Shown piece by piece: positions 4,951 through 54,326 of a stretch of 64,000 nucleotides of DNA. The translations under genes were made by a program, and so were the position numbers. This stretch comes from a bacterium (GTDB lineage Bacteria; Zhuqueibacterota; Zhuqueibacteria; Residuimicrobiales; Krinioviventaceae), in assembly GCA_963674595.2 (NCBI GenBank), contig CAXXFV010000023.1, positions 512,001-576,000 on the forward strand, written 5' to 3'. Positions within the stretch are counted from its first letter, which is position 1. Every line of letters starts with the position of its first letter. Below the pieces are notes generated by a model. That model was given only the letters and a program-made list of their open reading frames with translations. It made no database searches and was not told where the DNA came from.

Positions 4951-5871
4951 ATGAAAAAAATCATTTTTTATTGTTTTATATTGTCATTTACTTTAATCTT
5001 TGCTTGTGGTAAAAGTATTGTTTCGGTAACAAACGAGAGTTATGAACCGAAAATTGTTGTGCAGGGATATTTAACAGCCAATCTCCCCATTCAAGATATA
5101 ATTATTACCCGTAACTTTCCTGTTGGTTCAAATCTTGAAAAGATGAATATTTTCCCGGATGTTAATACCACATCAGTAACAGTAGAAAACCTGACCGACC
5201 AGAAAATTTACACTCTTTCTTTTAAAGCGTCTGAAAATGGTAAAACAAATGAAGGAAGTTGGTGTTGTTTAGATCCGGGTGTGCGGGTTGAATATGGCAA
5301 AACATATCGTTTGAACGTATCTGCAACAGTTGAGGGGACAAAATTAAATACCAGTTCCACAACAACTGTTCCAAATGAAGGACTTGCTATTGTGTCTGTA
5401 AATTATGATAAACTGACATATCGCCAAAAAGATTACAATGATCATGTGATGAGTTTTAGTGTAACTTTTGGTCGTTCACCGGAAACGGATTTTTATTTAT
5501 ATGGAATAATGGCTGTTGATGCCCATCCGGATTCGTTCATTTATGATAATCCGGTTCTGGATTATGATCGGGAAGATGTTGTAAAAGACCTGGAAGACCT
5601 GAAATACACTCATGACTGGAACCAAAATTTGGATCCTGATTTAGACAGAATAACGACCTATCTGGATTGGTTTAGTTTCTGGTTTTATGGAAATTATCAA
5701 ATTACTGTTTACGCGGTGGATAAAAATTATGCACGGTTTTTACAAACCTATAATGATGTTCAGGAAATGGATGGTAATTTTCATGAGGCGAGATTTTGTT
5801 TTGAGGGTGACGGTATCGGCGTTTTTGGCTCTGTTGTTGCCGATACTGTCAGTGTAAAGATTGTGCATTAA
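4951..5871 (+). CDS. DUF4249-like outer-membrane lipoprotein, partner of the TonB receptor
   Basis: Lipobox IFAC; YEPKIVVQGYL; C-terminal GIGVFGS; directly downstream of the TBDR. Confidence 0.7.
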   Translation: MKKIIFYCFILSFTLIFACGKSIVSVTNESYEPKIVVQGYLTANLPIQDIIITRNFPVGSNLEKMNIFPDVNTTSVTVENLTDQKIYTLSFKASENGKTNEGSWCCLDPGVRVEYGKTYRLNVSATVEGTKLNTSSTTTVPNEGLAIVSVNYDKLTYRQKDYNDHVMSFSVTFGRSPETDFYLYGIMAVDAHPDSFIYDNPVLDYDREDVVKDLEDLKYTHDWNQNLDPDLDRITTYLDWFSFWFYGNYQITVYAVDKNYARFLQTYNDVQEMDGNFHEARFCFEGDGIGVFGSVVADTVSVKIVH

Positions 5872-42105: not shown

Positions 42106-45249
<3,144 letters not shown>

Positions 45250-45390
45250 TTACGGTGGGTTATTTTTTTTACATGTAATGATACAAATTCTGAGGAACGA
45301 GAGCAAGAGGTTTTTAAAAAATTTGAGTTGGATGACAATATATAAGGAATTATTTTTCTTTCGTGTTTTCCATTTTGCCTGAAAACCAAA

Positions 45391-46536
45391 CTATTTAACA
45401 AGTAAACATTTTTTTACACAGCTAAACTTATCCGTGTCGATTTTGTACAAGTATATACCTGAACTGATATTTTCAGCATTCCAGGCTATTGTATGATCCC
45501 CGGCATTTTTAACCTGGTTAACCAATCTTTCAACCAATCTTCCCTGAATGTCATAAACAGATATATTTACATAAGACGATTGAGAGAGATGATAGGACAG
45601 GGTCGTTTGCGCATTAAATGGATTCGGATAGTTATTGCCGAGAACTGAATGCTCCGGTGTGTTTTCATTAGACTGATTTTTAACTTTGGTCTGGTCTATT
45701 GAAAATACAGTCATCACGCCCAGATGGTCCGAGCAGTAATGGGTTTCGTCAAAAGGCTGGTCGAGAACAACCAGAGAGCTATCGACTTTTAAGATTCCTG
45801 TGTTTTTATAAAATATATAATCGATCCGCTTATAAGGAGAATCAGCAGAATAGGTAAAGCCGGCTAAAGAAGGATGGACTGAAAAATAAGTGTCTATAAA
45901 ATAAGAACCTGTTTCCCTATTCGTCAGCAGGGCAATTGGTTCCGTGTTTGGCAACGTGTTCATATCACCCGTTAGAATCAATGCCGTTCCCGGCCAGGCA
46001 TTTTCTTTCAGCGTCATATATTCCATGATCTGCTGAGTCTGTAACAGCCGAACAGCATCATGTTCCGGTCGATAAGACAGGTGGGTATTGAAAAAATTGA
46101 CTTTTCCCAATGGTGTGTTGATATGGTTCCACACCACTTTGCGGACCACATTGCCTTTGGCAAGCGCTTTATATCCATACTGCTCCACCGGATACTTGCT
46201 TACAATACCGATGCTTTCGTAAAATTCATCCCATCCGACATGAGTAATGCTGTAATAACTGTTATAGGGTCTGTTAAAATATGCGCTTAAAGAATCCGCA
46301 ATGGTTACCGCCATGTTTTTCGCCGCCCCGTTTGTGCCTACGGGATGGCACACTTCCTGTAATCCGATAATATCCGGATCGAGGATTTTTAAATTTTGGA
46401 TGATGTGATAGAGGCGGGTCTCATAATCAGTTCCGGGTTTCATGCCCTGAAGATTATAGGTCATGGTTTTAAGCGTTTGCTGCGCTGATAACGGATGAAC
46501 AAAAAGAAAGATGAGCAAACAGACGAGTTGTCTCAT
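45391..46536 (-). CDS. Endonuclease/exonuclease/phosphatase family enzyme with T9SS type A-like C-terminal sorting domain
   Basis: MTYN, GLQEV, NTHL, GDMN, RIDYIF, SDH; NYPNPFN...SGIYLYKI...KKCLLVK. Confidence 0.9.
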   Translation of the reverse strand: MRQLVCLLIFLFVHPLSAQQTLKTMTYNLQGMKPGTDYETRLYHIIQNLKILDPDIIGLQEVCHPVGTNGAAKNMAVTIADSLSAYFNRPYNSYYSITHVGWDEFYESIGIVSKYPVEQYGYKALAKGNVVRKVVWNHINTPLGKVNFFNTHLSYRPEHDAVRLLQTQQIMEYMTLKENAWPGTALILTGDMNTLPNTEPIALLTNRETGSYFIDTYFSVHPSLAGFTYSADSPYKRIDYIFYKNTGILKVDSSLVVLDQPFDETHYCSDHLGVMTVFSIDQTKVKNQSNENTPEHSVLGNNYPNPFNAQTTLSYHLSQSSYVNISVYDIQGRLVERLVNQVKNAGDHTIAWNAENISSGIYLYKIDTDKFSCVKKCLLVK

Positions 46537-46746
46537 TTTGTGCCTTGATTAAATTTTTTTGCATTTTGTCGATTTTGAAATACACAAACAAACACCTGAT
46601 ATTTAATTAACAAATATTCTGTGTAAATTGCAAAATGTTTCAAAATTTTAAAGCAGGTGAATAAGGTTGAAAGGGGTGCGGGAGAAATGATCAAAACATC
46701 TTGAATTTAAACGGTTAAATTTTAAAAGGTCCCCCAAAATGTATGC

Positions 46747-46767
46747 CCCGGGATGCAGGGTCCCGGG
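46747..46767 (-). terminator. Hairpin after the PepSY-TM gene
   Basis: CCCGGGA-tgcaggg-TCCCGGG. Confidence 0.55.
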
Positions 46768-46818
46768 ACGTGCTGAATCATGTCAATTTGATATAAATGC
46801 AAACAATAGGCTATTTAA

Positions 46819-47343
46819 TTACAGGATTAATATCATAAATAGGGCAATCACAAAACCCAATCCGGTAAAAGCCATACCTCGTTTGAAAAATTTTGTATTC
46901 GGTTTAAACATCCAAAAGGAAGACAATGCCAAAAATACAAGTAGAATACCAAATGCCACTGTGAACCAATGTGCGGCATAATCGCTTGAGGTTTTGTGCA
47001 AGTTTATGAGCTTTTCAATAAAATCAGGAAATTTTTCAGTTGTATATACCGCAACTCCTGTTGATTTGGTGTAAACGCCATCTCTGAAATATATTTTATC
47101 CGCATCTTCATCGAGTATCTCAAACCTTTTGGATTTTAGAGCAGCTCCCAAATCTGCTGCTTTGATATCATGTTTCAATTGTGTTTCAACATTAACTTTA
47201 GATTTTAAAAAACTGGTATTGCGAAAAGTTAAAATAACGCCGCTAAGGCAATAAATGATGGTAAGGCCGATAATCAGGAATCCTATATCCCGATGCAGCG
47301 CACGCATTATCTTGTTGACCGATAATCCGGAATTCTGTTTCAT
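46819..47343 (-). CDS. PepSY-associated TM helix protein
   Basis: RALHRDIGF...LSG and LINLHK motifs; GAAAGGA RBS before 47343. Confidence 0.75.
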   Translation of the reverse strand: MKQNSGLSVNKIMRALHRDIGFLIIGLTIIYCLSGVILTFRNTSFLKSKVNVETQLKHDIKAADLGAALKSKRFEILDEDADKIYFRDGVYTKSTGVAVYTTEKFPDFIEKLINLHKTSSDYAAHWFTVAFGILLVFLALSSFWMFKPNTKFFKRGMAFTGLGFVIALFMILIL

Positions 47344-47686
47344 ATAAATCCTTTCTTGATGCATTTTTTAATATTATATATAAAATAGGACAATAACCGC
47401 AGGTTTCAACTGCCCTGTAGAAAATGAATAAATCATCACTTGTTATTAAAATCCCGAGTAGCAAAAAAATTTGCTCATTTAAACTAAATTATTTGAATTG
47501 TGGTTCACTTTGGGGTAAGGTGTGGTATTTCAGCTTTGCAATCAATCCTGTTTCAAAAGGATAATAATGAATGTCATTTGTAAATAACGCACTGCTGTTT
47601 GGTGAATTGGAGGTTGATGTTGGATTGGGTCTGTTGATGATTTTTTGGGAAATCTTTCGTAGAGTTTTATAATAAGATTATTTGAA

Positions 47687-48481
47687 TTAATCATTCCAAA
47701 TACAACTGAGGATTCCATTATTGCCCACCCGAATACATTGTTCATAAAATTTTATATCTTTATAATGATTAACTTTAAAATCCTGTGCAAACCAATCAAT
47801 TGCATATATTGGTTCTGGTTTGTCTGGTAATTCATCACCATTATAAAATTCTTTGGCAATAGTATTAATTGGTACATCCATTCCTTTTGGAACATATTGA
47901 AGATAAAAATCATTAGAAAAACTAGACCATTCGACTTTCTCATCTTTACAAAAAATGATAGCAACAGGAAAATCTCCTAAGGTTCTGTACTTCAAAAGAG
48001 CAGATGTAATAGAAGATTGGAAAGAGTGAGCAACATTTTTAATAAGATCAAGATTAAAAAATTTACCCCTTACTTGATCAATAAATAAATGAGAAGGCAT
48101 TAATAATTCAGCGGCAAATTTATTGGCTTCTAATTCGTGGTTTCCTTTTGCATGCCAATCGTTTAGGGACTTTTCATCATCCATATGAATTTGATTATCC
48201 AATAATAACCTGTGAAGCTCAAAATGACCTAATTCATGTGCTATAATAAACCTCTTTTTCCCTTCGTGATTAATATTCCGGTCATAAGAAATTATAGCTT
48301 CACTGCCATCTATCATTATTCGTCCTTGAGCACCGTCAAGTTTAATAGATTGTATATGTGTAATCCCTCTTGATAAAGCAACATCTTCACAAGTCAGGCC
48401 TAAAGGATCATTTAGTAAACCGCAGTCCTCAAGAACTATTCTAGCTGTATTGGTTGCTCTATCATTCGGAATTTTTATCAT
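47687..48481 (-). CDS. ImmA/IrrE (CapP-like) metallo-endopeptidase
   Basis: RFIIAHELGH (HExxH), ELEANKFAAELLMP, then an HTH-like segment and a GAF-like C-terminal region. Confidence 0.92.
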   Translation of the reverse strand: MIKIPNDRATNTARIVLEDCGLLNDPLGLTCEDVALSRGITHIQSIKLDGAQGRIMIDGSEAIISYDRNINHEGKKRFIIAHELGHFELHRLLLDNQIHMDDEKSLNDWHAKGNHELEANKFAAELLMPSHLFIDQVRGKFFNLDLIKNVAHSFQSSITSALLKYRTLGDFPVAIIFCKDEKVEWSSFSNDFYLQYVPKGMDVPINTIAKEFYNGDELPDKPEPIYAIDWFAQDFKVNHYKDIKFYEQCIRVGNNGILSCIWND

Positions 48482-48872
48482 TCTCCAAATCCTTTCTCAG
48501 TTCTCTAACCAATTCCATAAATTTTCTATCTGTTAACATGGATTCTTTATCTTCTTCAGTAATTTCCTCGAATTTACTATATAGTTGAGGAGCTAATTTT
48601 TGGTATTTAGGTTGATCCAATAATTTTGTTAATAATTCATTTTTCCCTATTTCATTTATCAAATTATCCAAAATTTCCTTAGCTCTGTTAGATATTCTTT
48701 TTTGCATAGTCGCTTTTGCTTTAGTATTTAACTTTTTAATATGTGTAAGATGTTTTTGAAAATTTGAATTTGGGCGCTGCTTCAAATCTTCTAAAATTTC
48801 TTCATCAGGAAAATTTATAATGGCTTCTTCAAAAAGTTCGTCAAGATGTTTTAATATATCATAATAATTCAT
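48462..48872 (-). CDS. Hypothetical helical protein, candidate anti-sigma factor or protease substrate
   Basis: Translationally coupled (TAATG) to the upstream sigma-like gene; overlaps the peptidase start by 20 bp; no recognisable HTH. Confidence 0.7.
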   Translation of the reverse strand: MNYYDILKHLDELFEEAIINFPDEEILEDLKQRPNSNFQKHLTHIKKLNTKAKATMQKRISNRAKEILDNLINEIGKNELLTKLLDQPKYQKLAPQLYSKFEEITEEDKESMLTDRKFMELVRELRKDLENDKNSE

Positions 48873-49486
48873 TACGTAGTCTCTTTAGAATGTTTGATAA
48901 TATAATTTTTTACTTTTGATTTCAAATGATCAGTTACTCTGTAAAGTTTTTTTTTCTCCCACCCTGTTTCATTACAGATTTCATCACTAGATTTCCCCTC
49001 AGTAATATATAAAAAAAGTGTTTCCATATCTTCATTTCCATCAATTGCCTCCATTATGGTATCTATCTGATACTCATAAAATTTTTCTTTTTCTGCTGAT
49101 TGAGTATCTTCATCAAAATCAACCATATTAAAGAAACCTATATTTTCAATTGGAATTTGAGTTTTTATAGAACTAGAATTTTTTTCTTGTTCCAATCTAT
49201 ATTTTCTCACATTTTCCGAAATAAGACTTCCAACAATCCTGCACATTTGTTCTGAAATGGAATATTCTTCTTTCCATTCCCAAGCACCACTATATAGTTT
49301 ATTTATTGCCTCATAGATGTAATAATCAAATGGTGACATACCTAAATAATTTTCACTATGGCAACCAAATTTTGTTCTGCCTCTTACTCGAAGATCAATC
49401 AATCTACGGCATTTCTCTATCGCTACGATCCATTCATCTTCACATAACTCAGTCAATCGTTTTAATGTATATTTTTCTTTTTCCAT
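48872..49486 (-). CDS. Divergent ECF-type sigma70-like protein
   Basis: Region-2-like DYYIYEAINKLYSG.W.W...MCRIVGSLISENVRK; acidic linker; region-4 HTH EGKSSDEICNETGWEKKKLYRVTDHLKSKV. Confidence 0.65.
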   Translation of the reverse strand: MEKEKYTLKRLTELCEDEWIVAIEKCRRLIDLRVRGRTKFGCHSENYLGMSPFDYYIYEAINKLYSGAWEWKEEYSISEQMCRIVGSLISENVRKYRLEQEKNSSSIKTQIPIENIGFFNMVDFDEDTQSAEKEKFYEYQIDTIMEAIDGNEDMETLFLYITEGKSSDEICNETGWEKKKLYRVTDHLKSKVKNYIIKHSKETT

Positions 49487-49634
49487 ATTAAATCACTTCA
49501 TATTTAATTTAACTGAAAAATTAAAATATTCCCTTTTTGCTGGGTAAAAAATCTTCAAATCAGTTAATTGATAAGTGAAACTCAATAGAGTTATTTTAAT
49601 TAAAGAAAACTACAATTAAATTCGGAGATTTTTT

Positions 49635-49985
49635 ATGGAAAATCCAAAATTTCAAATTTTCAAGGACAGTGCATCTGAGTACCGTTTTCGTCTCAAAGCT
49701 AAGAACGGTGAAATTATCTTGCGTAGTAGCGAAGGTTATACGACAAAACAAAGCTGCCAAAATGGAATCGCTTCGGTTAAAGCCAATGCTCCTTATGATA
49801 TAAGATATAGTCGCAATACTTCCACCAATGGTCAATACTATTTCGTTTTGAAAGCCAGTAATGCAGAACCGCTTGGAATAAGCGAAATGTATAATTCCAG
49901 TTCAGCTAGAGATAATGGTATTGAATCGGTAAAACAGAATGCGCCTATTGCTCCAACTGAAGATTTAACGGTTACAATGAATTAA
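49635..49985 (+). CDS. yegP: YegP/DUF1508 tandem-domain protein
   Basis: Two repeats: YRFRLKAKNGEIILRSSEGY...NGIASVK and YYFVLKASNAEPLGISEMY...NGIESVK. Confidence 0.92.
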   Translation: MENPKFQIFKDSASEYRFRLKAKNGEIILRSSEGYTTKQSCQNGIASVKANAPYDIRYSRNTSTNGQYYFVLKASNAEPLGISEMYNSSSARDNGIESVKQNAPIAPTEDLTVTMN

Positions 49986-50006
49986 TAAATCCATTGATAG
50001 TTTAAG

Positions 50007-50052
50007 TGGCAAGAATGGTTTTAGTAATATTATAGAAAAAACCTTCTTGCCA
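50007..50052. terminator. Hairpin after yegP
   Basis: TGGCAAGAA.GGTTTT / AAAACC.TTCTTGCCA inverted repeat. Confidence 0.65.
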
Positions 50053-50301
50053 TCTAGTTTTCATGATCTTTAATTCTAAATTAATATCATCGAATTTGGG
50101 TGAATTTTTTAGTGATATCTTACAATCCAGTATTACCTAACATTATGCAATAGAAATACGATTCTTGTTCAAGTGTAACCTTATCTGTGTTTCTACCTTT
50201 AAATCCCGTATTTATAAAGTTGAAAAATCAGTTTAGAATGTTTTTTGAATATCCCACAAATTGCCAACCGTCTGAAAAACAGACTATTAACTGATAAACG
50301 A

Positions 50302-50404
50302 ATTATACAAAATATTTAATACTACCGCAAGAGTTTTTCTAATAATATAGAAATAAATGAAGAGGCAGGTATCTGCAGGGATTCAAACTAATGAAACCCT
50401 GCAA
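50302..50404 (-). repeat. Dispersed module copy C: terminator hairpin plus promoter P6
   Basis: CGCAAGAG..TTTT...GAAATAAA.GAA..GGCAGGT...GGGATTCAAACT shared with copies A/B; hairpin TGCAGGG/CCCTGCA 50374-50404; AAAAACTC-TTGCGG-17 bp-TATAAT on the minus strand. Confidence 0.7.
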
Positions 50405-50421
50405 AATATAGACATGTTTTT

Positions 50422-52023
50422 TTATTTATCACCCAATTCATAAAAAAACAGGGTGCTCAGACCGCGGTAACGGCCGTATCCTTCGGGTCTGTAATCGGGA
50501 GCATTCAGGATTTTTTCGGTATAGGGCATATCGAGTCCCATACGATTGTGATAGTGATTATACATGGATTCCCAAATTTCCATTGGTTTATAATCGGTTT
50601 CCAGAACGCGCTTTGCGGTTCCTTCTATACCCTTTGACAGCCTGTTGTTCTCTATGGAATAAAGATCAATGCCCTGGTTTCGGGCAATTTCGGCAATACC
50701 CGCCAATGCACCGATTCCCATTTGTTCATGTCCCTGGTCGCGCAATGTTTCCTGGGTTGTGCTGTCCTCGCGTACATAATAGGTCATTTTACCATTACCG
50801 ATACCGTTCAAATAGTAATTGACAGCGTGATCAAAAATGAATTTGTCATCCAGGCAAATGCCCATTGAAATCAAACCTTCACCGATGACGGCGTCCCAGT
50901 TGCCATTATAGGAAGGAATAAAGTTTCGTAACAACGGCCAGTAAACCGTCCTGAGCCAGTTTTCAAATACAGTTTGGTCCTGTTCCTGCCAGCCGGATGC
51001 TGTGTTTTTAAGAATTTCAGCCGCATTAGCGAATTGTATCAGTGCGTGTCCGCCTGATAATTTGTCATTCCCGCCGGTTATTTCTTTGTTTGTTGTGGAC
51101 CAGGCCCGAATAATTTCGATGGCCTTTTCCGCGTATCTGATGCTGTCTGTCAGGACCCATAATTCTGTGTTGAAAAATGCTGCTTTTGCATCTTTATTAA
51201 TTTCTTTGTGCCCGGTGCTGACACTTTTTTGATAAAAACCGGTAAAAGTCAGTTTTTCAAACGGGGAAGGCTTGTAATCTTTATGTGCAAATTCGCTTGC
51301 CAATGCATCATCAAAAGCTTCTTTCCAGGGGGATTCTCCGGCCTGGATTTTTGATTTGACAAAATTAATCTGTTCCGTTGTTACAAGAATTCCCGGATGT
51401 TTGAATGCTTTAGGTGCATAAGCAGGCGGGACCGGCGGAACATAGACCAAGCCGCCGATCATAAAACGTGGTTTTAAATTGTCATAATCTTCCACACTGC
51501 CAAAACCGAGGTTTACGCCTTTTTCTTCGGTTTTAAAACACAGGCAGATATAATAATCCTCTTTGGCAAATTTTTGTTTTACAAAGTCTGTAAAATCGAG
51601 TTCATACACTTTTTGGGGTTCGTCAAATTTTTGTGATAAAATCGCTGTTTTACCGATTGGAGGCCGTTCGTTCCAGGTAAGCTGTGTTTCATCCCAGTTA
51701 TGGTCCAGTACTTCATAAACCGAAACCGTGCCGGGTGTAATCACATCTTTTGTTTGTATGCGCAGGATGGCGCTGTCCAGCCTGGAGAATCCCGGAATAA
51801 AGTATTTCAAATAGGCCATGGAAGCGTCGTACTCGACTGTTAGAGTTTTATCCTGAGCAAAGTTTGTTGATGCTTTTTTACCGGCTTTGACCGGTGCGTC
51901 ATCGTTCGGCTCAACGCCGACGTAATCATAGGTTGGCTGCCACATGGTCCTGTCTTCTTGACGTGTGCAGAAACTTGTCATTATCAGGAGCATGAGCAGG
52001 AGAACGTTAAAAACTCTGTACAT
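50422..52023 (-). CDS. Lipoprotein with DNRLRE/CBM96-like domain and alginate-lyase-superfamily domain
   Basis: Lipobox TSFC; WDETQLTWNERP N-domain; FKHPG, NGNWD, ETLRDQGH in an alpha-barrel lyase domain. Confidence 0.75.
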   Translation of the reverse strand: MYRVFNVLLLMLLIMTSFCTRQEDRTMWQPTYDYVGVEPNDDAPVKAGKKASTNFAQDKTLTVEYDASMAYLKYFIPGFSRLDSAILRIQTKDVITPGTVSVYEVLDHNWDETQLTWNERPPIGKTAILSQKFDEPQKVYELDFTDFVKQKFAKEDYYICLCFKTEEKGVNLGFGSVEDYDNLKPRFMIGGLVYVPPVPPAYAPKAFKHPGILVTTEQINFVKSKIQAGESPWKEAFDDALASEFAHKDYKPSPFEKLTFTGFYQKSVSTGHKEINKDAKAAFFNTELWVLTDSIRYAEKAIEIIRAWSTTNKEITGGNDKLSGGHALIQFANAAEILKNTASGWQEQDQTVFENWLRTVYWPLLRNFIPSYNGNWDAVIGEGLISMGICLDDKFIFDHAVNYYLNGIGNGKMTYYVREDSTTQETLRDQGHEQMGIGALAGIAEIARNQGIDLYSIENNRLSKGIEGTAKRVLETDYKPMEIWESMYNHYHNRMGLDMPYTEKILNAPDYRPEGYGRYRGLSTLFFYELGDK

Positions 52024-52120
52024 GAAAATTCCTTTCCAGGGATATGAGTGTTGTGGTTTAAACTTTTTTAACAGTAATTTTTAAACATAGAATGACATTG
52101 ACTATTCATTTCGTCTTGAA

Positions 52121-53299
52121 CTATTTTGACGGTACTTTCCAGATCGTGCCCAGTATATCCGGACGCGAACGATTCGGATCGGGTGGTGTCATACGCTGAT
52201 CTCCGTCTTCGGGATCGGGTTGATAATATACGGTTAGTACTTTGCCGGGCTCCAGTTCAACCGACGCCGGATAGCCCAGATCTTTATTAAAAGCATCGTC
52301 CCGTAAAATAATTTCATTTTCTTTTTTCCAGGTTATACCATCATCACTGACACAAGCACGCTCGCCAAACGGCGGTTTTCTGTATCCATAACTGCATACA
52401 ACGCGTCCATCAGACAACAGCAGCAGATGCGGCGGATATCCCCACAAGGGCGTTGCATAAGGTTCAACCCATGTTTTGCCATTGTCATCAGAATAGGTGC
52501 AGTGTAATAAACAACGTGGATCGCCATCATTATAGGGTTTTGATGTTACCCTTATCATCATCACAATCCGGCCCGATGGTAACTGTAAAAGATGCGGCTC
52601 GGCGATGTTGAGACTGTCCGGTTGGGGAGAAGATATCAGGGCAATTCGCTGCCAATCTTCTTCCGGTGATGCGGTTGAATAGACACCGATTTGCGGTGAG
52701 TCCAACCGATACGCCGCAATCAGCAATGTCCCGTCAGGAAGCTGAATACCGCCATGACATGAATCTTTGCCGTATTTCAGGTCTGTCCATGAATGGCCAT
52801 TGTCCTCAGATATGCGGCTTGATTCACCCTCATAAATGTGGGCATTTTTATAGGCCGGTTTTTCTACATGCTCCACCCAACGATCAATCATGTCCTGTTC
52901 GTATGAATTTGGACCCAAATTTTTGTATTTTTCAGATGTCCAAAAGGAAGTCCAATTATGGGTGATAATGCGTCCGTCGTTTAGTACTGAGAAACCCGGT
53001 TCTCTGTCATCAATCGGTGTATCAAGGACAATTGCCGGCATCTGCCATGTTTCGCCATTATCTGTGGAACGGCAGGTCACAATTTTTCCATCCGGTCCAA
53101 GGTGTTCTTCGTTAATGCAAAATGAAACCAACAAGTCCCCATTTGCAGCCCGAAGTATGTCCGGCCAGGCGCAGTATTCATCATGGCTAGCATAAACTTT
53201 AATGTGTTTGATGATGGGACTCGTTTCTCTGGTGGATTGACAATTTAACCATATTATGGCAAAGAGTACCAGGAATATAGCGGGCAGTTTTGTTTTCAC
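52121..53299 (-). CDS. BNR/Asp-box sialidase-like protein, lipoprotein
   Basis: Four Asp boxes (STDNGETW, SEDNGHSW, SDDNGKTW, SDDGITW); DLGYP; lacks the canonical FRIP motif. Confidence 0.8.
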   Translation of the reverse strand: MKTKLPAIFLVLFAIIWLNCQSTRETSPIIKHIKVYASHDEYCAWPDILRAANGDLLVSFCINEEHLGPDGKIVTCRSTDNGETWQMPAIVLDTPIDDREPGFSVLNDGRIITHNWTSFWTSEKYKNLGPNSYEQDMIDRWVEHVEKPAYKNAHIYEGESSRISEDNGHSWTDLKYGKDSCHGGIQLPDGTLLIAAYRLDSPQIGVYSTASPEEDWQRIALISSPQPDSLNIAEPHLLQLPSGRIVMMIRVTSKPYNDGDPRCLLHCTYSDDNGKTWVEPYATPLWGYPPHLLLLSDGRVVCSYGYRKPPFGERACVSDDGITWKKENEIILRDDAFNKDLGYPASVELEPGKVLTVYYQPDPEDGDQRMTPPDPNRSRPDILGTIWKVPSK

Positions 53300-53402
53300 A
53301 GGAACCTCCGGTTTGGGATGAGTGTTGTGTCTGGATAGTCGGTTATTTTAAATTTCGGATATACCAGGCAGTACAATTCATTAATTTATATTGACTCTAA
53401 AT

Positions 53403-54326
53403 TTATTGTGATAACGATTTCAACCAATCAATGCAGCGGTCTGTCCACGTGTCCAGGTAACCTTTGCCGATTGCCAGCGAAAAGCCATGTCCGCCCTGGG
53501 GATAGATATGCATTTCTGTCGGTACATCGTTGTCGTTTAAGGCTTTGTAAAAAATCAGGCTGTTTTCAATGGGCACTGATTTGTCATCACCGGCATGCAC
53601 GATAAAGGTCGGAGGTGTATCGGGTGTGACATGCAATTCGTTGGAATAATAATTAACCAACGTAGAGTCCGGATTTTCACCCAATAATGTTTTCCGTGAA
53701 CCACTGTGTGTAAAAGATTTTGTAAGCGTGATGACAGGGTATAATAAAATCATAAAATCAGGTCTGCAACTCAACATATCTATCGGGTCTGATGCATCGG
53801 GATTCCCTGAATCGTAATGGGTCCCTGCTGTCGAGGCAAGATGGCCTCCGGCTGAAAAACCCATAATACCGATTTTATCTTTGGAGATATTCCATTCTTT
53901 AGCATGGAATCGTGTCAACCGGATGGCTCGCTGCGCGTCAAGTAATGGAGATTTGTGTCCGACAATATTACTTTTTGATCCGGGTAAACGATATTTTAAA
54001 ACAATGGCGGCAATTCCTTTAGAGTTTAGCCATTTGGCAATATCCGTACCCTCCCAATCATAGCATACAACTCTGTATCCACCTCCGGGGCAAACAACCA
54101 CAGCCTGACCGGTGGCATTCTTTTTGGACGGTAAAAAAACTGAAATTTCCGGTTTTTGCACAAGACTGAACATAACAATGTCTGTTGTTTCCCGGATCTT
54201 AACCTGATCTGTTTTTTGATAATTGGGAATGTTTTCCGACCATAACGGTAGAATATAACTTTGTCCGAAACAAATTGTGTTCAGGAGTAAAAAAGCAGTG
54301 ATACAAAGGGAATATTTAATCATCAT
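53403..54326 (-). CDS. Alpha/beta hydrolase (carbohydrate esterase-like), secreted
   Basis: CPGGGY, GFSAGG nucleophile, DDKSV, GGHGF. Confidence 0.9.
   Translation of the reverse strand: MMIKYSLCITAFLLLNTICFGQSYILPLWSENIPNYQKTDQVKIRETTDIVMFSLVQKPEISVFLPSKKNATGQAVVVCPGGGYRVVCYDWEGTDIAKWLNSKGIAAIVLKYRLPGSKSNIVGHKSPLLDAQRAIRLTRFHAKEWNISKDKIGIMGFSAGGHLASTAGTHYDSGNPDASDPIDMLSCRPDFMILLYPVITLTKSFTHSGSRKTLLGENPDSTLVNYYSNELHVTPDTPPTFIVHAGDDKSVPIENSLIFYKALNDNDVPTEMHIYPQGGHGFSLAIGKGYLDTWTDRCIDWLKSLSQ

Follow-up and report, generated by a model that had tools for sequence, protein, structure and literature searches.

A conserved cassette of a divergent sigma factor, a helical partner and a CapP-family peptidase next to yegP: a candidate protease-released sigma switch

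Background

Damage-activated metallopeptidases of the M78/COG2856 family cleave small regulators encoded beside them, as in the IrrE(PprI)/DdrO pair of Deinococcus and the ImmA/ImmR pair of ICEBs1 and phages, and in both cases the substrate is an XRE-family repressor. PprI is described as sensing single-stranded DNA (ssDNA) (PMC10904395). A preprint on the CapH+CapP system reports that E. coli CapP, which is activated by ssDNA, cleaves CapH between Phe82 and Arg83, in a C-terminal helix that serves in oligomerization (Lau et al. 2022, 10.1101/2022.04.27.489752). Here we analyze a cassette found in a 64,000-nucleotide stretch of DNA (the window) from a bacterium of the phylum Zhuqueibacterota (GenBank assembly GCA_963674595.2, contig CAXXFV010000023.1, positions 512,001 to 576,000). 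It consists of coupled genes for a divergent extracytoplasmic function (ECF)-type sigma factor, a 136-amino-acid partner protein and a CapP-family peptidase, with yegP in the opposite orientation. It is a genuine regulatory cassette, conserved in other genomes, and it seems moderately probable that it constitutes a self-contained version of the CapH/CapP DNA-damage switch built around a sigma factor.

Proteolysis also acts on anti-sigma factors, and examples include RseA of sigmaE (cleaved by DegS/RseP), RsiW of sigmaW (PrsW/RasP) and RsdA of SigD. RsdA is treated in PMC3597663. Such systems mostly involve membrane anti-sigma factors, general or site-1/site-2 proteases, and envelope signals. 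The idea of a sigma-linked Cap system is not wholly new, given that the preprint of Lau et al. mentions 24 cyclic oligonucleotide-based antiphage signaling systems (CBASS) in which capH and capP occur "alongside a predicted sigma70-family sigma factor" (10.1101/2022.04.27.489752). In the literature searched, we found no paper that characterizes a sigma/anti-sigma/CapP module or such a module with an M78 peptidase.

The cassette resembles CapH+CapP in having a peptidase of the same family (a full-length capP match, an HExxH motif plus Glu, and similarity to the CapP structure 7T5T), in having a small protein encoded just upstream of that peptidase, and in heading cargo operons, one of which is a CBASS (locus L013, below). 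However, it contains no XRE-type helix-turn-helix (HTH) repressor, its small protein is not CapH, and a sigma factor is added, such that control by the cassette would be positive, by release of an activator, rather than de-repression. Unlike CapP proteins with a cysteine switch, the window peptidase lacks the switch cysteine. Compared with IrrE/DdrO and ImmA/ImmR, the XRE-family substrate is missing and a sigma factor is present instead. The proposed scheme shares with regulated anti-sigma proteolysis an ECF sigma factor held by a co-transcribed inhibitor, a signal that leads to destruction of this inhibitor, and an autoregulated operon. It departs from those systems in that the partner is soluble, the protease is a dedicated cytoplasmic M78 enzyme encoded in the same operon, and the signal is presumably ssDNA. 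The CapK+CapS system, as described in PMC13373217, is likewise a damage-responsive Cap module with YegP as a stand-alone cargo and with the same cargo classes (CBASS and others), but there a kinase phosphorylates a repressor with STAS and winged HTH domains, and the gene orientation differs.

A conserved four-gene cassette

In the open reading frame (ORF) list of the window, the cassette comprises ORFs of 204 amino acids (sigma-like; 48872-49486), 136 amino acids (the partner; 48462-48872) and 264 amino acids (the M78 peptidase of the CapP family; 47687-48481), all on the minus strand, and a 116-amino-acid ORF (yegP; 49635-49985) on the plus strand. A divergent control region of 148 bp (49487-49634) separates the sigma-like gene from yegP. 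The sigma-like and partner genes have one base in common (TAATG), and the partner and peptidase genes overlap by 20 bp (48462-48481). GC content drops to 0.27-0.34 over positions ~47000-50250; the flanks have 0.40-0.47, and the genome as a whole averages 0.388. An earlier reading of this DNA, made from the sequence alone and called here the sequence-only reading, had reported three coupled genes in an AT-rich patch, divergent from yegP at 148 bp, and this description is confirmed.

Close relatives of the cassette are present in a Kriegella metagenome-assembled genome (MAG; locus L001) and in three metagenome contigs (L017, L018 and L019), where the sigma factors are 52-74% identical to that of the window. 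L001 and L019 are probably the same organism. Divergent yegP, sigma and partner genes are found in all four close-relative loci (three of them independent), and the gene for CapP comes next wherever the contig continues. The four ORFs of the window cassette are intact, and in these three other independent loci they are conserved at 52-90% identity, with the junctions intact as well. The sequence-only reading had considered the locus to be either minimal or truncated. It is not truncated, as yegP alone is the conserved cargo among the close relatives.

More distant loci retain the triad with different cargo, so that the conservation on which the sequence-only reading had made its proposal depend extends to triads with yegP, CBASS or other genes. 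Locus L013 encodes a sigma factor of 199 amino acids, a partner of 147 and a CapP of 266, with genes for a patatin effector, a SMODS cyclase and an E2 protein downstream on the same strand; judged by these genes, this cargo is a Type II CBASS. In L014 the triad is succeeded by DUF6765 and a TIR-like gene. The sigma and partner genes overlap by 4 nucleotides in L001 and L014 and are 1 nucleotide apart in L013, and over the window, L001, L013 and L014 the partner and CapP genes overlap by 20, 17 or 11 bp or lie 6 bp apart.

Locus L015 has a sigma-like gene and no CapP. The sigma-like gene is followed by one for a 711-amino-acid protein whose first ~50 residues match the L013 partner (BLASTP, 9e-6) and which continues with PAS and GAF domains. 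L015 has the appearance of the same sigma/partner pair in a version equipped with sensor domains. Within L015 (7995-14789), the 711-amino-acid protein gene precedes one for a 1332-amino-acid FG-GAP protein with C-terminal sorting domains of the type IX secretion system (T9SS) tail kind.

The cassette is patchily and sporadically distributed, and horizontally scattered. Within the phylum, the sigma profile matched five of 167 genomes at E <= 1e-8, and this count includes the window genome and an ordinary ECF sigma factor (L016). None of 18 genomes of the same family carries the cassette, and in a second phylum none of 401 genomes matched at E <= 1e-12. A search for related loci returned four genome loci, one of them a true relative, and three metagenome loci, and no related loci were detected in a viral collection, plasmids or phages. 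Near-full-length CapP matches numbered five in the 167 genomes. Three of these CapP genes follow sigma and partner genes and one follows capH; the fifth (L032, G023:C810:2135-2902, E 1.1e-55) contains an in-frame TAA and is located at one end of a contig of 2975 bp. One genome (G013) has both arrangements, namely a classical divergent CapH(XRE)+CapP pair next to a CBASS cyclase and E2 (L031, contig C10) and a sigma/partner/CapP triad with a different cargo (L014, contig C33). In the Kriegella MAG (L001, 9862-12557), the cassette is directly followed by genes for a 770-amino-acid MobA/VirD2-type relaxase and a MobC/NikA-like protein, which suggests that this copy is carried on a mobilizable element.

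A CapP-family peptidase

The 264-amino-acid protein is a zinc metallopeptidase of the CapP family within M78 (IrrE-like). It matches the PADLOC capP model (PDLC04141) with an E-value (E) of 4.3e-56, residues 8-263 aligning with model positions 4-241 of 242, and also matches Pfam Peptidase_M78 (E 2.5e-13). Its sole sequence match in the PDB is CapP (7T5T, E 2.2e-12). In an alignment of this protein with four other CapP-like proteins (A6), residues H82, E83, H86 and E116 do not vary, and they line up with H96, E97, H100 and E129 of the CapP zinc site described in the Lau et al. preprint. An IrrE/ImmA-type peptidase had been called from the sequence, and these results place it more precisely in the CapP family.

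The position of the cysteine switch is occupied by Met in the window peptidase, by Asn in L001, and by Cys in L013 and L014. According to the Lau et al. preprint, 134 of 408 CapP proteins carry this cysteine, which is hence optional (10.1101/2022.04.27.489752). The capP family model covers the C-terminal half of the 264-amino-acid protein, and a GAF domain and activation by ssDNA would be expected by analogy with CapP. The peptidase has no XRE-HTH CapH substrate as its neighbor; the adjacent gene encodes the 136-amino-acid protein.

A divergent ECF-type sigma factor

The 204-amino-acid protein is a divergent ECF-type (group 4) factor of the sigma-70 family, from a remote branch. We draw this conclusion because its predicted structure, a match between its family profile and an ECF sigma factor, profile-profile comparison and protein language-model neighbors all agree. 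The AF2 model has a mean predicted local distance difference test score (pLDDT) of 74.7 and includes a 24-residue disordered linker (residues 106-129). A Foldseek search with this model returned sigma factors as its nine best rows and as most of the others, with weak values (E >= 0.013). In VIA-align comparisons, residues 128-204 resemble sigma-4 domains, with 3mzy giving the best match (Z 9.7, root-mean-square deviation (rmsd) 2.5, 75 residues aligned), followed by 4cxf (CnrH, Z 9.1), 3vep (SigD4, Z 8.2) and 2h27 (Z 7.3). Residues 5-107 superpose on sigma-2 of RpoE (5uxx_C; Z 7.1, rmsd 2.8, 84 aligned), a middling Z for helical folds. The sequence-only reading had proposed an ECF-like sigma factor and named the sigma fold as a point to be checked, and both sigma-2 and sigma-4 are matched.

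Relatives of this protein numbered 15 in a word-indexed search, and an exhaustive profile search extended the family to 230 cluster representatives (E <= 0.001); 122 of them reached <= 1e-10 and 31 reached <= 1e-30. We built the family alignment (A3) from 78 near-full-length members out of the 150 listed. The profile of this alignment matches L016, a textbook ECF sigma factor (Sigma70_r2 3.3e-13, r4_2 6.8e-18), at 1.9e-10, and matches region 4 of sigma-F and FliA weakly. The L016 gene is succeeded by a putative anti-sigma gene and then a large ORF. In a single hhalign comparison of A3 with the genome's own 15 ECF sigma factors plus L016, the probability was 95.5% (E 1.4e-8) over 183 colinear columns that run from region 2 through region 4. 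The family member in L014 matches Sigma70_r2 directly (E 2.8e-4). Among language-model neighbors in the Atlas, the nearest named clusters were all Sigma70_r2/r4/ECF at 0.96, the ten best named ones all belong to the sigma clan, and 68% of the members of a neighbor cluster of the 204-amino-acid protein carry Sigma70_r2. No sigma-partner fusion was seen among 26 family members of at least 225 amino acids.

The 136-amino-acid partner

The partner is soluble (maximum 19-residue hydropathy 0.34) and acidic (isoelectric point 5.5), and has neither a transmembrane segment nor a cysteine. It has 13 relatives and no more, and longer or fused forms were absent from 754 candidates at E <= 0.01. A sub-threshold Pfam match to DUF5764 was discarded; this family was found in none of the 167 genomes and no control genomes.

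The partner is not CapH and has no detectable HTH, because no Pfam HTH family matches it at E <= 1 and hhalign of its family with the genuine CapH of L031 gives 0.3%. Its match to the capH model (E 0.0025) compares with 2.9e-19 for the L031 CapH, which also matches many HTH models. In the structural model, whose confidence is low, a 40-residue helix occupies residues 36-75, where an HTH would lie. The sequence-only reading had described a partner without an HTH and a locus without an XRE repressor, and the Pfam, capH and hhalign results are in accord with it.

Partner sequences appear to be modular. An N-terminal block is common to the partners of the window, L013, L014 and L015. By contrast, a C-terminal block, (F/Y)(S/H)K(F/L)(E/K)...D (FSKxE..D), is confined to partners followed by CapP, and the 711-amino-acid L015 protein does not have it. 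Residues 98-102 of the window partner form the conserved (F/Y)(S/H)K(F/L)(E/K) part of this block, and they fall inside the least confident stretch of the model (98-105), which lies between helices. The position of the partner gene is also that of many anti-sigma factor genes, as it adjoins the sigma gene and is coupled with it in the window, L001, L013 and L014.

The divergent control region

An inverted repeat with a left arm TTAACTGA (49509-49516) and a right arm TCAGTTAA (49560-49567) had been noted in the sequence-only reading. By itself this repeat does not exceed what chance would produce. When the stretch, with its GC content of 21%, was shuffled 2000 times, 1161 of the shuffled sequences held a perfect inverted repeat of at least 8 nucleotides, and a repeat search listed 14 inverted pairs in 301 bases. 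The repeat is nonetheless taken as real because its arms are conserved across four loci. In an alignment of the window control region with those of three other loci (A4), the extended left arm TTAACTGAAA (49509-49518) is invariant at 10 of 10 positions, the extended right arm TCAGTTAAT (49560-49568) at 9 of 9, and a central GGGTAA at 6 of 6 (25/25 overall), whereas 37 of 123 positions are invariant in the remainder of the intergenic region. Thus, the repeat was correctly observed and is invariant, though it is not significant on its own.

Reading inward from each arm, the pattern TTAACTG-N16-CC is found on both strands in all four loci (with 15 nucleotides at one L001 site). AAC, as within TTAACTG, is typical of ECF -35 elements, and the spacing is that of an ECF promoter. 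The left arm on the plus strand is a predicted -35-like box of a promoter directed toward yegP, and the reverse complement of the right arm, on the minus strand, is the corresponding predicted box for the sigma operon. The central TTCCC...GGGTAA block (49529-49547) is predicted to hold a pair of -10-like elements that face each other, CCTT on the plus strand (49532-49535) and CCCA as the reverse complement of 49541-49544. From these features we infer that the control region holds two overlapping divergent promoters, with predicted leaders of ~90 nucleotides for yegP and ~45 nucleotides for the sigma operon. Two other assignments, with the arms read outward as -35 boxes or with TGAA(A/G)C as the -35 element, were rejected; in each of them the left copy puts the start of transcription inside the sigma ORF.

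A different element is found in the distant loci. L013 (9.4 kb), L014 (14 kb) and L015 (15 kb) contain exactly one copy each of TGGCAAA-N16-GCAT, every time just upstream of the sigma-like gene, and L016 and L001 have none. Promoters are preferred over one fixed operator because single copies of the element are directional and the paired arrangement is variable in these loci.

Locus L014 has a second, divergent copy, TGGCAAG-N16-GCAT (in the 5640-5730 region), that faces a gene for a 100-amino-acid GIY-YIG/DUF7508 protein (5298-5600, minus strand), divergent from the sigma-like gene, and the two copies are back-to-back. Like yegP, this GIY-YIG/DUF7508 gene may serve as a small divergent cargo, in this case of a second kind.

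A scan of the 6.6-Mb genome for TTAACTGA-N11-14-T[TA][CA]CC gave six matches, and five shuffled versions gave 9, 2, 4, 2 and 2. The locus itself accounts for two of the six, three are inside ORFs, and the sixth has no ORF of at least 120 amino acids starting within 300 nucleotides downstream. The motif is at background level and the other matches are not placed as promoters, and the predicted regulon is therefore local. The scan demanded an exact -35 box, and degenerate sites would escape it.

The yegP cargo

The 116-amino-acid protein is YegP-like, with tandem DUF1508 domains (PF07411, E 2.1e-43, two stretches). It is encoded by the sole DUF1508 gene in the genome, as both matches above the cut-off are in one 121-codon open frame. 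A YegP homolog follows 57 of 443 capK+capS pairs in the survey of PMC13373217, which terms E. coli YegP uncharacterized. DUF1508 proteins are called stress-induced in a preprint, and tandem DUF1508 has been likened to the ssDNA-binding sPC4/Whirly fold (PMC12065111). The sequence-only reading had connected E. coli YegP with DNA break repair, a link for which the portions of the literature searched offered no support, the protein or its family being called stress-induced or uncharacterized there.

Proposed mechanism and alternatives

On balance, we favor a protease-released sigma switch in which ssDNA-activated CapP would cleave an anti-sigma partner, and the freed sigma factor would transcribe its own operon and yegP. 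At rest, the co-translated helical partner would keep the 204-amino-acid sigma factor inactive by serving as its anti-sigma factor, with the N-terminal part of the partner as the proposed sigma-binding part. The C-terminal FSKFE..D block of the partner is the proposed site of recognition or cleavage by the peptidase. DNA damage or phage attack would generate ssDNA and so activate the CapP-family peptidase, which would cut the partner, possibly at the FSKFE stretch, and set the sigma factor free. With RNA polymerase, the sigma factor would then act at the two overlapping divergent promoters (TTAACTG-N16-CC on each strand), one of which would drive yegP and the other the sigma/partner/peptidase operon, giving positive feedback. 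The steps that we infer in this scheme are binding of partner to sigma, cleavage of the partner, activation of the window peptidase by ssDNA, and the assignment of the promoters.

A number of observations weigh against this mechanism. The 204-amino-acid protein matches no Pfam family, and its score with TIGR02937 (E 0.06, 13 bits) is far below the cut-off of 42.9. When the 78 members of A3 were scanned singly at E <= 0.01, only a few had matches (Sigma70_ECF, 2; Sigma70_r4, 2; r4_2, 1). A narrow hidden Markov model of the genome's 15 ECF sigma factors ranked the protein 41st (E 1.6) among 484 ORFs scored at E <= 100, with 5378 ORFs searched. As for the partner, its all-helical AF2 model is of low confidence (pLDDT 58), and a structure search with that model found generic helical hairpins, at a best Z of 6.2. 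Solved anti-sigma factors show no likeness to the partner by PDB sequence or structure, and the zinc anti-sigma motif HxxxCxxC is absent from this cysteine-free protein. By hhalign, the window partner family has a weak relationship with the L013 partner (E 1.8e-4, 48%) and E 0.16 with that of L014. The sigma/partner pair of L015 exists without CapP, which leaves the partner a putative CapP substrate. Finally, the promoter motif was both derived from and scored on one set of four related loci, its palindromic layout is equally compatible with a dimeric operator, and the left arm lies 22 nucleotides from the sigma start codon.

If the 204-amino-acid protein is a sigma factor, its partner could instead be an adaptor, a chaperone or a peptidase inhibitor, with CapP cutting a host protein or the sigma factor itself, the latter as pro-sigma processing or as inactivation. 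The partner's lack of resemblance to any solved anti-sigma factor is in line with such a role, as is the partner/CapP overlap, which is as tight as the sigma/partner junction, and the 24-residue disordered linker of the sigma factor could serve as a protease site. We consider this unlikely. In L015 the N-terminal partner block stays beside the sigma factor when CapP is absent, fused there to PAS/GAF sensors in the usual build of anti-sigma factors, the C-terminal block tracks the presence of CapP, and M78 peptidases of this family cleave a neighboring small regulator, as the Lau et al. preprint describes. Alternatively, the 204-amino-acid protein could be an ordinary DNA-binding regulator, a repressor or activator that binds the inverted repeat as a dimer through its sigma-4/LuxR-like HTH and is inactivated by CapP directly or via the partner, which would make it an analog of CapH with a different fold. 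The control region indeed forms an imperfect palindrome of 59 bp whose arms are invariant, HTH domains of the LuxR/GerE type are also among the matches of the C-terminal domain (EsrB with Z 7.7, SsrB and EvgA by sequence), and the left arm is too near the sigma start codon to be an outward-facing -35 box. We find this explanation decidedly unlikely in view of the full-length, colinear ECF alignment that includes region 2, and of the N-terminal domain, which superposes on sigma-2. Moreover, the distant element is bipartite, directional and, in L013 and L015, single-copy rather than palindromic, and the L014 pair is arranged unlike that of the window, a difference more easily reconciled with promoters than with a single fixed operator.

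Two further alternatives concern what the cassette controls, if anything. ECF sigma factors often have dispersed regulons, and this one might mainly control a remote stress or defense regulon to which yegP is incidental, as the sequence-only reading had entertained. The genome-wide scan, made with an exact -35 box, gave no sign of such a regulon, the motif being at background level, and yegP is an invariant neighbor in the close relatives; a mainly remote role is thus very unlikely. The low-GC patch and the sporadic distribution, with no occurrence in the 18 same-family genomes, would also be expected if the cassette were what is left of a mobile element, decaying or silent and with no present regulatory role. 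That possibility is highly improbable when set against four intact ORFs conserved in three other loci with their junctions, catalytic residues that have been kept, and invariant motifs in the control region.

Genomic surroundings

The neighbors of the cassette in the window are glycoside hydrolases. A 27-nucleotide AT-rich direct repeat, 78% identical between its copies (47359-47385 and 50015-50041), brackets the four genes almost exactly, and may mark insertion boundaries or be due to chance in AT-rich DNA. The noncoding flanks span 436 bp (49986-50421) and 322 bp (47365-47686), and no terminator-like site was found in them. Positions 44000-54000 yielded no Rfam match, there is no tRNA in the window, and no integrase lies beside the cassette. 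Next to the low-GC patch are genes for an Exo_endo_phos protein with a T9SS sorting tail (45391-46536) and for a small PepSY_TM-like membrane protein (46819-47364), the latter gene also having a low GC content (0.33-0.36). When the insertion site was compared with one same-family genome that has the alginate-lyase gene, this gene alone was common to it and the window, and an empty site is therefore not definable.

Implications

The cassette may exemplify a third, positive mode of Cap-type control, although our confidence in this broader reading falls a little short of even. It would be a portable three-gene module in which ssDNA-activated CapP destroys a dedicated soluble anti-sigma factor of a type not described before, with sigma binding located in its N-terminal part and a CapP degron in its C-terminal part. 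A private, highly divergent ECF sigma factor would then amplify its own operon and fire whatever cargo is attached, be it YegP, CBASS or DUF6765/TIR. The promoter specificity of the host would not be needed, and damage-inducible cargo could move between distant hosts.

To our knowledge, all regulators described so far for immune and stress cassettes of bacteria (CapW/BrxR, CapH+CapP and CapK+CapS) act by relieving a repressor. If the proposed mechanism is true, the cassette would be the first activator-type member among them, and its own promoter specificity could explain how tight silence is combined with strong induction after transfer to unrelated hosts. Anti-sigma proteolysis would likewise be extended to a cytoplasmic, DNA-damage-sensing M78 peptidase. 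The module is small, consisting of sigma factor, partner, peptidase and a promoter region of ~150 bp, and is suited to a reporter strain. It also represents a second, independent class of regulator with YegP as stand-alone cargo, which strengthens the case that YegP/DUF1508 proteins act when cells respond to DNA damage or phage, and which offers a handle on YegP function.

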